A DNA stretch of 64,000 nt from Syntrophomonadales bacterium (lineage in GTDB: Bacteria > Bacillota > Syntrophomonadia > Syntrophomonadales > DTU052). The DNA is taken from contig JBMNJO010000001.1 in NCBI GenBank assembly GCA_050951725.1, forward strand, positions 924,967 to 988,966. Direction: 5' to 3'. The notes beneath the pieces are model-generated. The model saw only the letters and a list, made by a program, of their open reading frames with translations, was not told the origin of the DNA and searched no databases. This document shows positions 2,714-63,622 of the stretch, one piece after another. Both the position numbers and the translations under genes were made by a program. The stretch's first letter is position 1. Each line of letters begins with the position of its first letter.

Positions 2714-2783
2714 TTCAAATCTCCTAGTTTATACTATTTGTTCGAAAGCTGTATCTGATTCCACTGCCAGTCATATTTCGCTA

Positions 2784-2976
2784 GTTTGCATGGATAAGTA
2801 TTGGTCGCCAGATTTCGCATAGGCTTCCCTCTGGTTGTCTCACAACCTTAGAGGTATGGTGAATTTGCGTTCATCCTCTCACCCCGGCTATGCGGCTCAA
2901 CACATTTCGTCGTTCACCTTCACAGGGTGTTGCTCCCGTGATCCGTAAAGGCTGCTCAATACTTATGCATTCAAAC
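2784..2976 (+). repeat. structured intergenic repeat, copy E1 (strand tentative)
   Basis: 193 nt in the tlyA-nadK spacer. It is bounded by 20-nt inverted termini, GTTTGCATGGATAAGTATTG (2784-2803) and CAATACTTATGCATTCAAAC (2957-2976). It shares internal blocks with the copies at 23585, 45733, 59571 and 63289. Confidence 0.6.
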
Positions 2977-2981
2977 TACCG

Positions 2982-3806
2982 TCATCCCTGATTTGGTACC
3001 GGCTTATCGAGTTGGTGGTGTGCATCCGCCACCACCCGGGAAAGCATGGCATAATCAACGGTTTCTGTCAGTCCCTTCTTCAGATGGAAGAAGAACTCAA
3101 TGTTCCCATTGGGACCTTTGATGGGCGAATAGCAGGCGTTCACCAGGGCCAGTCCGCATTCCGATGCCTGCCGTGCCACTCGGTGCAAAACCTCTTCGTG
3201 AACTTCTGAACTCTTGACCACACCTTTTTTGCCCACTTGCTCACGTCCGGCCTCAAACTGGGGTTTGACCAGGGCCACCACCTCACCGTCATCGGTCAGC
3301 AGTCCGGCTGCCACCGGGAGAACCAGGCCCAAGGAGATAAAGGCTACATCAATGGTAATGAGGTCCATCTTCTCGGAGAAATCCTCCGGGGTCACGTACC
3401 TTATATTGGTGCGTTCGATCGTAGTAACCCGGGGGTCCTGGCGCAGGCTCCAGTCGAGCTGACCATACCCCACATCGACCGCATAGACCTTACGGGCGTC
3501 GTGCTGCAGGGCACAATCGGTGAACCCTCCGGTGGAAGCACCCACATCCATTACCACCTTATTCGCAAAATCCAGGTCCATTGCCTGGATGGCTCCCAGG
3601 AGTTTCAGCCCCCCGCGGCTGACAAAGTTCGGTCCATCATTGCCCAACACCCGGAGTTCGGAACCCTCGGGTATCTTCTGCCCCGGCTTTTCCACCCTCT
3701 GCCCATCCGCAAAGACCAGACCGGCCAGAATCAGGGCCCGCGCCTTTTCGCGGCTCGGGGCGAAACCCTCCACGTGCAATCTGATGTCAGCCCGTTCACC
3801 CGACAC
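2982..3806 (-). CDS. tlyA: TlyA-family rRNA 2'-O-methyltransferase (hemolysin A-like)
   Basis: 274 aa with an S4-like N-terminus, FVSRGGLKL, and an FtsJ-like SAM motif DVGASTGGFTDC. Confidence 0.85.
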   Translation of the reverse strand: MSGERADIRLHVEGFAPSREKARALILAGLVFADGQRVEKPGQKIPEGSELRVLGNDGPNFVSRGGLKLLGAIQAMDLDFANKVVMDVGASTGGFTDCALQHDARKVYAVDVGYGQLDWSLRQDPRVTTIERTNIRYVTPEDFSEKMDLITIDVAFISLGLVLPVAAGLLTDDGEVVALVKPQFEAGREQVGKKGVVKSSEVHEEVLHRVARQASECGLALVNACYSPIKGPNGNIEFFFHLKKGLTETVDYAMLSRVVADAHHQLDKPVPNQG

Positions 3807-6299: not shown

Positions 6300-6890
6300 A
6301 TAAGTAGAATAAAGCGGAGGTTACCCCCTGAGTAAACGCTGTGACTTAGGTCCAGCAGGTTTTCCCGTTGAACATCCTGCTTGTCGCCAAGCAGGCGGTT
6401 TCCCTTTACGCTCAACCCGTGTTGTCGCCGTACACGAGGCTGGATTACCACTTAGTGCACACTTTAATCCCCAGAGGGTCGTGCCTGGCACACAGTCTAG
6501 GGGATTTCCCCGACAACCTCTACCAATTCTTAGCCTCTTTTGCAGCAGGGGTTTCAGAAGAGGGAAAACGGAACCGTGGCCATCGGTCTCCGTACCTCTA
6601 TAACTCATCCGCCCATACCACTCAAGGCAGGCTACACTGCACCCAGCTTCCTACCAGATGCAGGTTTTCCCGAAGGATTGCTCCTTCGAGCCTCCACGGG
6701 TGGGGGGTCAGTTCCCGCATGCCGTTGCAGGCTGCCCCGGCACCCTTAACTCCCAGCACCAACCCCCAACTGGGCGTTGAAAGCTGACACCAGAATCTTC
6801 ATCGATGTGCCCTATAACGGATTTTTAGGCCCGTCTTCAGAATTGGTGAGATTGACTAGAATACTGCAACCTCCACCCATAATTCTAATT
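6300..6890 (-). ncRNA. ole: OLE (ornate, large, extremophilic) RNA; ends approximate to about 40 nt
   Basis: About 590 nt with only short, mutually overlapping ORFs on both strands. The segment is GC-rich with dense local complementarity. It lies between a promoter and oapA, followed by dxs-tlyA-nadK-argR-recN, which is the known ole synteny. Confidence 0.75.
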
Positions 6891-11596: not shown

Positions 11597-11855
11597 ATCA
11601 TTATCTCCAGTCTTGGTTCATTAAAATGGTGTATATGCTGTTTCTGCTATTCCAGTATCGGAGTTCAGACTACCCCTAAATTCTATCATTAAATTGAGGG
11701 AGCGCAAATCAAGAACGAGCCGCTCCTCATCATGGCAACTGGGCGATTAACATTCATTCCGCGTTGGTTCCCTGCGAAAACAGATAACCCGTAAGGTTGG
11801 GTGCAGAATTATGCAGGAGTCTGTGCATGGTGTTAACGCCTGTTATCTTTCATTA

Positions 11856-20346: not shown

Positions 20347-20609
20347 CAAACTACACCCCTATACATATGGGACACGGGGACAGGTGCCCTGTCCCGCTTT
20401 TGCCCTACTAATTCGGGGACACCCTAATGAATCTCCATTTGGGGGACATCATACTAAATTTTCTATTACTTGAGGAAAGAGAATTTGGTATGGCGTCCCC
20501 CAAATAGACACCTCTATCAAGTAGAACGTAAACCTGGCTCCCCACTCCAGACAAACCGTCCTCCGTTATTGATTCTCACTACAACGCACGGCTTCCTCCC
20601 TCTTTACAT

Positions 20610-22481: not shown

Positions 22482-23462
22482 CTACAGCCCGCGTCGCTCG
22501 CGGTTGGCAGTAAAAAACCTCTCCCTCACCAGAGGATCCAGACCGTTCATTATCACCGTTTCCATGGATTTACGGGTCAGCCTGACCTCCCGGTCGACCA
22601 GATCAAGCCACGCTGGAATGCCCCTACCCTGGGAAGGGGTTAACGAATAGATTAGATTCATAGCTGGCAGCAGGAACTCCCCCTGCTCCGCCAGGAAGTC
22701 ACAGGCAACTGCCTGGGGTGTGCTGCCCATACGGGCAAACACTGTGGTATAATTCCGCTTGATCGCGCTCTCCCCACCCAGAGCCACCATTTCACCCACC
22801 TCAAGGAGCCCGAACAGGAATTCACGATCATATATACGCAGACCCGGCACCTCCAGCCCGGTCAGTGAACAGAGCTCAGCAGTGGCGACCTCTTCGATCA
22901 CCCCGACCAGTATACAGTTGTGAGTTCGAGCCTCACTGACCAGTAACTCCCATTCGGGAAAGCGGTCAAACAACAAAAAGCCCCCATCAAGCATGATCAT
23001 GAAGGGCTTAAATGTTTGCAGGGCGTTCAAGGCCAGTCTTATTTCCATGTGAGCCATCTTCTCGCCCATCAGGCGGCGGTATGCCTCACTATCCTCCAGC
23101 CGGTTCTTGACGGCGAACTCACTTACTTCCGTGCTCAGTTCAGGATCAAAAGGGCAATAAATCTCGGAACCACTCAACTGGTTAGGTTCACCCTTGATAC
23201 TTCCCTTGGCCAAGGCCTGAACCAGGCAGACGGTATAAGGATAAAGGCCTCCGTAATCAGCCCGTGAGCCATCGACGGCTATCAAGGTCCGTCCCCCGGT
23301 CAACTCTACAATTTCCCAACGGTTAAGCCGCTGCAGAAAGCCGAAATCTGCAAGCATACGCAGTCTCTGGCGCCGGGTTTCCAGGGAAGGACAGAGGGAA
23401 TCACGATGGAGGAAATATTCGTTCAGGCGTCGGGTGGCGGCGAGAACCTCGTGGTTTAGCAT
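22482..23462 (-). CDS. NurA-like nuclease
   Basis: About 326 aa with acidic motifs IAVDGS, IMLDGGF and GVIEEV. It lies directly upstream of herA with an 18-nt gap. Confidence 0.7.
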   Translation of the reverse strand: MLNHEVLAATRRLNEYFLHRDSLCPSLETRRQRLRMLADFGFLQRLNRWEIVELTGGRTLIAVDGSRADYGGLYPYTVCLVQALAKGSIKGEPNQLSGSEIYCPFDPELSTEVSEFAVKNRLEDSEAYRRLMGEKMAHMEIRLALNALQTFKPFMIMLDGGFLLFDRFPEWELLVSEARTHNCILVGVIEEVATAELCSLTGLEVPGLRIYDREFLFGLLEVGEMVALGGESAIKRNYTTVFARMGSTPQAVACDFLAEQGEFLLPAMNLIYSLTPSQGRGIPAWLDLVDREVRLTRKSMETVIMNGLDPLVRERFFTANRERRGL

Positions 23463-23584
23463 TTTCAACCTCGCCCGGATTTTTCCTTATTATATATTAA
23501 CCTCCGACCCCGTTCAATTACCTGCTAAACACCCAGGGACGTTAAGTCATCATGAGATGAAGCTGTTCAGCTTGCAGGGAAACT

Positions 23585-23810
23585 TAAGCATGATTCCCCG
23601 CGAAAACCCAGGAGGCGGTTGGCGTAGCATGGTAGCAACGGTGAAGGCTCACGGCGAAAGGGGGCGAGCCCCATGGACGGGGCGAGAGGGCCACTGAACA
23701 CGGACATGAATTGGCCCGGTGCCCCATTCGTCGTGAGACAAGCAGTTGGTGTTGCCCATGTGAAGTCTGGCGACGAATATTTATGCATCCAAACTCCGAA
23801 TCGCAACTTT
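23585..23810 (-). repeat. structured intergenic repeat, copy E2 (strand tentative)
   Basis: Shares the GTTTGGATGCATAAATATTCGTCGCCAGACTTC terminus and internal blocks with the other copies. It is bracketed by a perfect 13-nt direct repeat, TTGCAGGGAAACT, at 23572-23584 and 23811-23823. Confidence 0.6.
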
Positions 23811-23910
23811 TTGCAGGGAAACTATTAACTCGTTTGCAAACGCAGGAGCCAAGCTCATTCGATTGCTGGACGAGCCGGATGAACGGATGGTGTCCAAAAA
23901 GGAAGGACGG

Positions 23911-24369
23911 CTACTTGAGCATTATTCTGGTACCAACCGCTAACAAGGCGACCCCCAACAGGTCGATCCAACGAAACGGGACTTTTTCCATCCCCATGAT
24001 CCCAAAACGATCGATCATAACCGCCGTCAGAATCTGGGCGAAGATGATGCCCGTCGTAGCATTACCCACCCCTATCTGCGGCATGCTTTTGACCACCCCG
24101 AAGATGATGATTACGTTCAGCAACCCGCCCAGGTAGACATACCACGGCGCCTCGCTGCCCTTGGCCAGCCCGCCAAAACCCGTTCCCGTTACCAGAATTA
24201 CACCCACAACCGTAATCAGCCCAATTATGTGCACCACCAGCGTGGACTCCCATAAACCGATCACCTTGCCCAGCACACTGTTCATGGTTCCCTGGACTGC
24301 CATGGCAGCCCCTGCCACCATCGCAATAATCAGATAGGTCCAATTCAATGAAGTCACCTCTTCAGACAA
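23911..24369 (-). CDS. DMT-superfamily membrane protein (DUF606/YdcZ-like)
   Basis: 152 aa with five hydrophobic helices and a YdcZ-like sequence pattern. Confidence 0.6.
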   Translation of the reverse strand: MSEEVTSLNWTYLIIAMVAGAAMAVQGTMNSVLGKVIGLWESTLVVHIIGLITVVGVILVTGTGFGGLAKGSEAPWYVYLGGLLNVIIIFGVVKSMPQIGVGNATTGIIFAQILTAVMIDRFGIMGMEKVPFRWIDLLGVALLAVGTRIMLK

Positions 24370-45690: not shown

Positions 45691-45732
45691 TTTGTGCCAC
45701 TGATTACCCTGCCAAAAGTAATAATCTCTTAC

Positions 45733-45790
45733 GTTTGGATGCATAGATATTCGTCGCCTGACTTCGCATGATGGAACACCATCCAAAAGG
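45733..45790 (+). repeat. structured intergenic repeat, truncated copy E3 (one terminal module only)
   Basis: GTTTGGATGCATAGATATTCGTCGCCTGACTTCGCATGATGGAACACC matches most of the terminal ~50 nt of copy E2 (by-eye alignment). The similarity then stops. Confidence 0.5.
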
Positions 45791-45917
45791 GTTTCGCCCG
45801 AGGAATCACCGATGCCTCCCGTTTACAAAGAATAACATTATACAAACCGTGGAATTTTGGAATCCTATCCTTCAGGAACAGTTATCACTACATTCATGGT
45901 TACGGGAGGCAGAGGAC

Positions 45918-59388: not shown

Positions 59389-59570
59389 CCACCATTCCCC
59401 CTTTCTGTAGTAATGATACCTTAATTTCCCGGAAAGCACACCCCCTTCCTGCTGTACCAGACAGGCGGGAACTACGGTCAAAGTGGGACAGGGAAACAGG
59501 TTCGCTGACCTGCTTTTCCGAAAGCAGCAGGACTGTAACAGGTACTTTCCGATTAAATCTTGAGTCTAGA

Positions 59571-59773
59571 GCCTGCGCAAAATTCCGGTGAGCGGACGTT
59601 GTATCCGAACGCCGCCGCACCCTGCTGAGCGACGGTGGAAATCAACCAAGCGACAGGACGCGAGATAAGTTTTTGTGACATGGACGAATAGAAGGAGTGA
59701 TGCTCGCCACCTGAACCTGAGCATTTGGCGTTACCAGTGCAGGACCCAGGAACGAACGGAATTTGCGCACGCC
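59571..59773 (-). repeat. structured intergenic repeat, copy R4 (strand inferred from wobble pairs)
   Basis: 203 nt. The terminal arms GCCTGCGCAAAATTCCG and CGGAATTTGCGCACGCC pair with each other. It is closely similar to copy R5 throughout. Confidence 0.65.
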
Positions 59774-59854
59774 GCTGCACATGAAGCCAGCTGTAGTCCT
59801 CCGCCCAGCATTCAATATTGAACAGTGAACTCGTCCCCTGTCCCACCTGCTGGT

Positions 59855-63237: not shown

Positions 63238-63250
63238 GAAATGGGACAGA

Positions 63251-63276
63251 GGGACAGATCTACTGTCCCATTTTTT
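63251..63276 (+). terminator. intrinsic terminator after corA
   Basis: GGGACAGATCTACTGTCCCATTTTTT. Confidence 0.8.
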
Positions 63277-63288
63277 GCTGCAGCTAAG

Positions 63289-63499
63289 GCCTGCGGTAAA
63301 TTCCGGTGAGCGGATGTTGGGTCCGAACTGTGCAACACCCTGCGAAGCTGAAGATGGAAAGCAGCCGAGCGACACGAGGTCGCGAGATAAGCCTTTTAGA
63401 CATGGACGTCGATTAGGCGGGGTGCTGCTTTCCACCTGAATCTAAGCAGTTGGTGCTGCCAGCGCAGGACCCAGGAAGCGAACGGAATTTACCGCAGGC
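63289..63499 (-). repeat. structured intergenic repeat, copy R5 (best preserved; strand inferred from wobble pairs)
   Basis: 211 nt with a perfect 17-bp terminal stem, GCCTGCGGTAAATTCCG / CGGAATTTACCGCAGGC. An internal 14-bp helix joins 63352-63365 and 63424-63437. Confidence 0.7.
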
Positions 63500-63622
63500 C
63501 GACGCGCGCGTAACCAGTAAACTCCCCGCACCAAGAAAACGGAAACAAGGGATCCAAGCCCCTTGCTTCCATATCCTGCATTGCATCACGGGGACAGTCC
63601 CCGTGATGCAGTTTGCTTCCGT

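Follow-up and report, generated by a model that had tools for sequence, protein, structure and literature searches.

Transposable elements of the miniature inverted-repeat type (MITEs) have been described in several bacteria, including Correia in Neisseria, RUP in Streptococcus pneumoniae, and ERIC/IRU in enterobacteria. In other described systems, the two ends of an insertion sequence (IS) are joined in circle junctions or tandem dimers, as in IS3/IS911, IS30, IS21, and IS256. A third is the TwoAYGGAY RNA motif, which carries two AYGGAY loops and a P1 stem that can reach great length, 24 base pairs being the example given (Weinberg et al. 2010, PMC2864571). The locus considered here shares features with all three. 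It lies in a 64,000-nucleotide stretch (the window) of contig JBMNJO010000001.1 from a Syntrophomonadales bacterium, and consists of a structured repeat copy, E2, that sits in the spacer between a ydcZ-type gene and nurA in the company of a perfect 13-nt direct repeat. No paper dealing with miniature inverted-repeat elements in Syntrophomonadaceae came up in a literature search.

E2 belongs to a MITE-like family that has not been described before, and is an old and damaged copy of it. It is probably an insertion specific to the window's lineage, placed 75 nt upstream of the nurA core promoter, which is intact. The anatomy set out below is probably correct: a MITE-like element, its own tip as copy A of the 13-nt repeat, and a repeat that does not represent a target-site duplication. 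The origin of the second repeat copy (copy B), a solo tip outside the element, is addressed more tentatively.

Ends and anatomy of the E family

The family was collected by scanning species-representative genomes with a pattern for its conspicuous inner repeat, which gave 19 loci in three Syntrophomonadaceae metagenome-assembled genomes (MAGs). Twelve of the 19 came from one MAG, and several stood at contig ends, as seen in a fragmented MAG. Scans of a metagenome collection, evidently without samples of the window species, gave no match with a first pattern and a single locus, L036, with a second; this is a family copy from a metagenome of the closest relative, located elsewhere than in the ydcZ–nurA spacer. 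An intact copy compared by blastn with plasmid and phage collections found no match.

Twelve copies of one MAG and copies from three other sources define the outer ends of the family. It runs about 30 nt past the inner repeat (GTTTGGATGCAT / GTTTGRATGCAT) on both sides, to conserved outer termini in inverted orientation, which read GATTCCACTGCAAAAAGGTATAATTCGCAG at the left end and TTTTTGCAGTGGAATC at the right end, and intact copies have GATTCCACTGCAAAAAG and its complement at both ends, forming a terminal stem of 16 bp. The termini are two-tiered, with an outer repeat of ~17 nt and an inner repeat of ~18 nt separated by ~13 nt. Copies are non-coding and 217 to 270 nt long, and intact ones measure ~269 nt. 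For the annotation of Syntrophomonadales genomes this means that the true family ends lie some 30 nt beyond the GTTTGGATGCAT repeat, which is internal.

Placed in this frame, E2 is a decayed copy of 232 nt. Positions 3 to 227 of a family hidden Markov model (HMM) align to 23821–23602 (E = 5e-66), and pairwise alignment with L036 gives 87% identity. The left tip of E2 is AGTTTCCCTGCAAAAAG, to be compared with GATTTCCCTGCGAAAAG in copy L004 and GATTCCACTGCAAAAAG in the MAG copies; copy A of the 13-nt repeat thus belongs to the element. A 31-nt internal deletion with its junction at 23609/23610 removed the inner right repeat and retained the outer right terminus, and a further 4 nt are missing relative to L036. 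Because the larger deletion took the inner right repeat, only one good "terminus" is visible in E2. The initial annotation, which called the other end degenerate, was right in this respect; the terminus that it likened to those of copies E3 and E1 is indeed similar to both (the complement of 23757–23794 matches E3 at 45733–45770 in 35 of 38 positions and E1 at 2783–2812 in 26 of 30) but is the inner repeat. The two outer tips of E2 have diverged from each other, matching at 9 of 17 positions (9 of 11, with one indel, in the core).

Folded as single-stranded DNA, an intact copy gives a single hairpin that joins its two ends and contains two stem-loops (z = -9.1); for E2 the z value is -1.7, in line with its decay. 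Of the 68 pairs in the consensus fold of 11 family copies, 9 show compensatory double changes. In intact MAG copies, positions 19 to 24 of the left arm (e.g., L015 720–725) hold a perfect TATAAT, within GGTATAATTCGCAG, where the right arm has CCCCCAATTACG and E2 has TTGCGATT; this asymmetry is kept between copies and may represent an inward-facing -10 box.

The flanks of 11 copies from other genomes were compared, and 10 showed AT-rich duplications of 5 to 7 bp, mostly 6 bp (Table 1); the five 6/6 and two 5/6 cases share one fixed register. As a control, the left flank of one copy was set against the right flank of another, and just 1.8% of such pairs agreed in at least five of six positions. 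These results bear directly on the 13-nt repeat, TTGCAGGGAAACT, which has two exact occurrences in the window, both on the + strand and enclosing 226 nt, as initially annotated. It was then regarded as a duplicated flank of the kind that a target-site duplication would leave, and indeed the repeat is perfect and brackets the recognizable part of E2. However, copy A has its homologue in the outermost 13 nt of each copy of the family, copy B stands 7 nt off the other terminus, and the family's own duplications are about half as long. No other copy has a 13-nt flanking repeat, and none of 15 other family copies shows a solo terminus within 60 nt, so that E2 is alone among 16. A target-site duplication of E2 is therefore a most improbable explanation, and the doubts attached to it from the outset, that 13 nt is too long and that other copies have no such flanks, were well placed. 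The case also carries a lesson of method: perfect direct repeats that bracket a repeat copy may be no more than the element's own tip and a stray duplicate, which shows only once intact relatives are aligned.

That the family is, or was, mobile was argued in the initial annotation and is supported because of the flanking duplications, the copies at contig ends, a nested element, and element-free orthologous spacers. The nested element is a second small sequence lying at the same position within three family copies of one MAG, where it has a 6-bp duplication of its own (GCCTGT/GCTTGT). It suggests either a second MITE served by an enzyme of similar kind or a subfamily whose spread followed one nesting event.

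The ydcZ–nurA spacer in related genomes

The gene downstream of E2, nurA, has its ATG at 23462, and its exact 326-aa product is on record in many public assemblies. On its 3' side follow herA, a gene for a Mre11-like phosphoesterase, and a gene for a Rad50-like ATPase. E2 ends 129 nt upstream of the nurA ATG and copy B ends 109 nt upstream of it, in agreement with the first estimate of about 120 nt. All same-species contigs that span the spacer carry E2. At 90% identity, the cluster around the window's NurA has just two other members, both fragments, and the single low-coverage contig that they come from has the same structure.

The nearest other NurA proteins, 73–77% identical, come from four related lineages that keep the gene order hpcH-ydcZ-nurA-herA-mre11. 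The ydcZ–nurA spacer is 448 nt long in the window and 89, 129, 212, and 228 nt long in these four relatives, and the family HMM found no homology to the E family in any of the four spacers. The relatives' spacers align only at the ydcZ end and over ~50–60 nt upstream of the nurA ATG, the stretch that contains the promoter. A consensus scan placed the nurA core promoter, which the initial annotation had proposed to map relative to the element, downstream of E2, and the same spacing of -35 and -10 boxes is found in the four related spacers. The insertion leaves the nurA promoter untouched.

The position of the repeat, upstream of the nurA promoter and with copy B 55 nt upstream of the -35 hexamer, might suggest that the 13-mers are regulator binding sites for nurA or ydcZ, or another conserved regulatory feature, and that their link with E2 is incidental. 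No copy of the 13-mer is present within three errors in the four related spacers, though the core promoter is conserved there. In addition, one of the two 13-mers is part of a mobile-element tip, and a spacing of 239 nt is atypical of operator pairs. Such a regulatory role is hardly credible on these grounds. Neither of the two outcomes that the initial annotation had named as refuting its reading was seen.

Three apparent likenesses at this locus were considered and set aside. First, the resemblance of the E2 flanks to promoters of the relatives (a "TCCAGCAATCG..." motif, and GAGTTAAT vs GAGGTTAAT) is at chance level against shuffled sequences (p >= 0.05). Second, the same holds within the window for ATGCTCAAGT at the ydcZ stop and ATGCTTAAGT next to E2 (p >= 0.05). 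Third, the right flanks of E2 and L036 are alike (ATGCTT.. vs AAGCTT..), which was judged to be an effect of an A-N4-T target preference and not a shared flank.

Origin of the solo terminus

Exact 13-mer direct pairs at distances of 50–400 nt number two in the window, with 0.37 expected, and 23% of windows simulated with a Markov-1 model hold at least one. The other pair, GCAGGTTTTCCCG at 6355 and 6660, lies inside an OLE RNA, which together with the NCBI name of the NurA protein points to a Syntrophomonadales MAG as the source of the window. The placement of the pair at E2 is nonrandom, as the chance of an exact copy of the tip near the far end of the element was estimated at ~60 positions × 4^-13, or ~1e-6. 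The pair is not an assembly artefact, because four JGI contigs (L020–L023) have the same sequence across the whole spacer and an independent low-coverage ENA contig (L037) keeps both 13-mers.

The identity of the two copies ends exactly at 13 nt, with AAAG following in E2 and GCTG after copy B. Copy B matches the reverse complement of the right tip of E2 only partially, compared with 13 of 13 positions for the left tip. Five left tips from the window genome are all different (GATTCCACTGCCA in E1, GATTACCCTGCCA in E3, GGTTCCCTGCGAA in E4, ATTTATCCTGCGG in E5, and AGTTTCCCTGCAA in E2), and copy B is for this reason read as a local duplicate of the E2 tip, rather than an independent insertion or a generic tip-like target.

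On the minus strand, the order is ...GAGTTAAT / AGTTTCCCTGCAA AAAG...E2...GGGGAATC / ATGCTTA / AGTTTCCCTGCAA / GCTGAAC... A right end, 6–7 nt, and a left end look like the order expected of two ends abutted head to tail. The first six bases of the spacer, ATGCTT, have the length and the A-N4-T appearance of the family's target duplications. It is the end order, together with this sextet, that leads us to favour, tentatively, an origin of the solo tip as the relic of an abutted second copy. L015 offers a partial analogue: an older copy has collapsed there to a remnant with the end TGGAATC, and 6 nt separate this end from a full copy. This case indicates that abutted ends do occur in the family.

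The history would then read as follows. A MITE-like non-coding element spread within Syntrophomonadaceae, moved by a transposase that would act in trans, bind the outer termini, and insert the element at staggered cuts 6 bp apart. One copy would have entered the ydcZ–nurA spacer of the window lineage, upstream of the nurA promoter, and would then have lost 31 nt including the inner right repeat. E2 may once have been followed by another copy, in tandem or abutted, or by a circle-type junction, of which all but the first 13 nt were deleted. The anatomy of the family is that of a MITE, which points to a transposase, and an autonomous partner would be expected to be 1–2 kb long, bounded by GATTCCNCTGC...GCAGNGGAATC, and flanked by a 6-bp duplication.

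Several observations weigh against this account. First, inverted pairs of the terminus motif 0.5–4 kb apart, sought as candidate autonomous elements in ~500 kb of sequence, gave only noise, and a Pfam scan of 24 open reading frames of the window detected neither a transposase nor a reverse transcriptase, so that the mechanism is read from the anatomy. Second, no target duplication is present at the termini of E2 (GTTAAT vs ATGCTT). A tandem dimer or a reinsertion at the same site predicts ATGCTT on the left of E2 as well, and an extra event, which could be an adjacent deletion or a recombination, must be assumed. Third, no remains of a second copy beyond the 13 nt are seen, the flanks of E2 being unique and without homology to the family by HMM. 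Fourth, the idea of a junction relic draws on one full case and one partial analogue, as 1 of 16 copies has a solo terminus. Finally, in the search for empty sites proposed in the initial annotation, the element and the 13-mer were absent from the ydcZ–nurA spacers of four relatives, and these spacers are too diverged for an exact empty site to be reconstructed (Smith-Waterman with shuffled controls, p >= 0.05).

Some of these difficulties would be met by a Campbell-type or microhomology insertion, in which a circle with the junction right end-ATGCTTA-left end recombined with an older solo 13-nt tip upstream of nurA. Such an event, the recombination route already named in the initial annotation, accounts for the perfect 13-nt direct repeat, for the missing 6-bp duplication at E2, and for a spacer of duplication length that is unlike the left flank of E2 (GTTAATA vs ATGCTTA). 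However, it needs a pre-existing 13-mer equal to the incoming tip in a genome whose tips all differ, and related spacers have no such 13-mer. Furthermore, 13 nt is very short for homologous recombination, and circular intermediates are not known for the E family. We consider this route unlikely.

The single short patch, with no other trace of a second copy, could also be explained by templated duplication, in which the E2 hairpin stalled replication and a template switch or slippage re-copied 13 nt of the hairpin base to the far side. The very stable end-to-end hairpin of intact copies would favor such a stall. On the other hand, slippage at hairpins usually deletes between repeats and does not create them, and two precise switches would be needed with little microhomology at the joints. 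The position of the patch, exactly one duplication length from the right tip, would also go unexplained, and this origin appears improbable to a similar degree. The 13-nt direct repeat around 226 nt of hairpin-forming sequence could plausibly promote deletion by slippage, and the locus may therefore be unstable.

Other copies, structured core, and comparison with known systems

The window genome has at least five copies or fragments of the family within ~83 kb (Table 1). The flanks of E1 and E3 show no target duplication. In E1, the right inner repeat stops at 2977, close to the stop codon (2982–2984) of an FtsJ/TlyA-like gene (2982–3806, - strand). An outer right terminus at the expected place would run into the 3' end of this gene; either E1 has none or the insertion reshaped the C-terminus of the protein. 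E5 is flanked by AAAAAA/AAAAAC and lacks the inner right repeat, as does E2. Its 25-nt deletion has the left breakpoint in common with the 31-nt deletion of E2, which hints that a subfamily lacking the inner repeat may have been mobile. In the nurA operon, the spacer between herA and mre11 contains an inverted repeat with 31-nt arms (20434–20464 / 20478–20508, 84% complementary) together with motifs of the GGGACAG type, and may be a further small insertion into this operon that is specific to the lineage. GGGACAG-like motifs also adjoin a second structured repeat family (59480–59500, 63240–63270).

Table 1. Features of the E2 locus, other family copies with their flanking duplications, and further features of the window; coordinates are window positions unless a locus (L) is named
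Feature	Position	Strand	Remarks
E2	23592..23823	-	decayed 232-nt non-autonomous inverted-repeat (MITE-like) copy; from family HMM and alignments
Repeat copy A	23811..23823	-	outer left terminus of E2, AGTTTCCCTGCAA; homologous to GATTCCACTGCAA / GATTTCCCTGCGA of other copies
Inner left repeat of E2	23769..23794	-	GTTTGGATGCATAAATATTCGTCGCC; earlier taken for E2 terminus
Outer right terminus of E2	23592..23609	-	GGGTTTTCGCGGGGAATC; cf. GGGGCTTTCGCCGGGGAATC in L036
Spacer, 7 nt	23585..23591	-	ATGCTTA; separates E2 right terminus from solo left-terminus copy
Repeat copy B	23572..23584	-	solo duplicate of E2 left terminus, 13/13 identical, outside E2
Structured core of E2	23620..23768	+	two adjacent hairpins inside long closing stem
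nurA core promoter	23489..23517	-	-35 TTGAAC 23517-23512, 17-nt spacer, -10 TATAAT 23494-23489; predicted by consensus scan
nurA, 326 aa	22482..23462	-	Pfam NurA; first gene of nurA-herA-mre11-rad50-like cluster
ydcZ-type DMT exporter gene	23911..24369	-	upstream neighbor of nurA
herA-mre11 spacer	20350-20609		~260 nt in window species vs 0-57 nt in related lineages
E1	2757..2983	+	decayed copy; family HMM E = 2e-55
E3	45702..45864	+	shortened copy; left terminus GATTACCCTGCCAAAAG, right terminus ends GGAATC
E4	11768..11840	+	short degenerate fragment; left terminus GGTTCCCTGCGAAAAC; weak match (E = 0.09 to 1)
E5	L038 19677-19885	-	fifth copy, same genome; ~8 kb past right end of window
Collapsed family remnant	L015 654-697		inner repeat and last 7 nt of terminus; only other abutted-end case seen
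Nested element, ~85 nt	L009 4186-4266, L014 2275-2355, L019 2051-2131		termini CCTGGATTCC...GGAATCCAGG; same position in three copies
Flanking duplication, L008			AATCTT, 6/6
Flanking duplication, L016			ATAGAT, 6/6
Flanking duplication, L017			ATGATT, 6/6
Flanking duplication, L018			AAGAAG, 6/6
Flanking duplication, L009			AAGAGT, 6/6
Flanking duplication, L015			AATAAT / AATTAT, 5/6
Flanking duplication, L036			AAACTT / AAGCTT, 5/6
Flanking duplication, L014			ATATTCT, 7 nt, adjusted register
Flanking duplication, L007			ATAATAG, 7 nt, adjusted register
Flanking duplication, L019			AAAGT, 5 nt
Second structured repeat family	59543-59790, 63261-63500	+	two copies ~75% identical
OLE RNA, full-length	6301-6888	-	484.6 bits

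Compared with TwoAYGGAY RNAs, the core of E2 exhibits the same architecture, in that two adjacent AYGGAY-loop hairpins are closed by a very long stem. The loops are ATGGAC at 23673–23678 and ACGGAC at 23700–23705 on the + strand (ATGGAC and ATGGAT in the MAG copies), and the strand that carries them is opposite to the family's reference orientation. The hairpin stems are kept across copies with compensatory changes; E1 and L001 have no AYGGAY loops. The AYGGAY strand folds better as RNA in all 11 copies compared (consensus -79.7 vs -64.5 kcal/mol), weak evidence given that the copies are related. RF01731, TwoAYGGAY, is the best Rfam match on the same strand for E2 (21.5 bits), for the intact L015 copy (22.3 bits, a partial model match), and for the second repeat family (25.4 bits at 63317–63473). 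These scores lie below the gathering score of 43, and no Rfam family reaches its gathering score in the E2 region. The likeness is therefore one of architecture and not of membership, and the description of the Rfam family does not present it as a transposable element that bears duplications at its flanks.

The second repeat family is closed by a long-range stem, GGCCTGCGGTAAATTCCG...CGGAATTTACCGCAGGCC, and has a core segment in common with the E family, its GCAACACCCTGCGAAGC being the reverse complement of GCTTCGCAGGGTGTTGC. Its copies sit between housekeeping genes, one between a metallo-beta-lactamase-fold gene and a penicillin-binding protein (PBP) gene and the other between CorA and DUF1256 genes. 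The likeness of the E-family core to the orphan TwoAYGGAY motif suggests that this motif may be carried by a mobile hairpin element or may itself be one. A bolder reading, that both families are mobile genomic carriers of TwoAYGGAY-class RNA and that the E2 relic is the fossil of a circular or tandem intermediate, seems quite doubtful. In the full text of a bioRxiv preprint of September 2026 (10.64898/2026.09.22.753630), the term "AYGGAY" has 56 occurrences, "reverse transcriptase" has 14, and "cDNA" has 24. If TwoAYGGAY RNAs were tied to a reverse transcriptase, the repeats could be copied through an RNA/cDNA step and not by a DDE transposase, and what look like inverted termini would be no more than the foot of the stem that closes the RNA.

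Compared to the Correia, RUP, and ERIC MITEs, the E family has several distinguishing features. First, its termini are two-tiered and it carries two AYGGAY-loop hairpins. Second, no autonomous partner was found in the sequence searched. Third, its target duplication is ~6 bp and AT-rich, where that of Correia and RUP is TA. In other respects the resemblance is close. Like these MITEs, the E family is small (~230–270 nt) and non-coding, with terminal inverted repeats and short target-site duplications. It has many dispersed intergenic copies and appears to differ in presence or absence between related genomes. The whole element can fold as a long hairpin, and decayed or internally deleted copies are common.

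Compared to the IS circle junctions and tandem dimers, E2 keeps only 13 nt of the second end, its left flank has no matching 6 bp, and its junction is a putative one. The two ends nevertheless stand as in the IS3/IS911, IS30, IS21, and IS256 junctions, right end to left end and head to tail, and they are likewise separated by a short spacer whose length is close to that of the target duplication.

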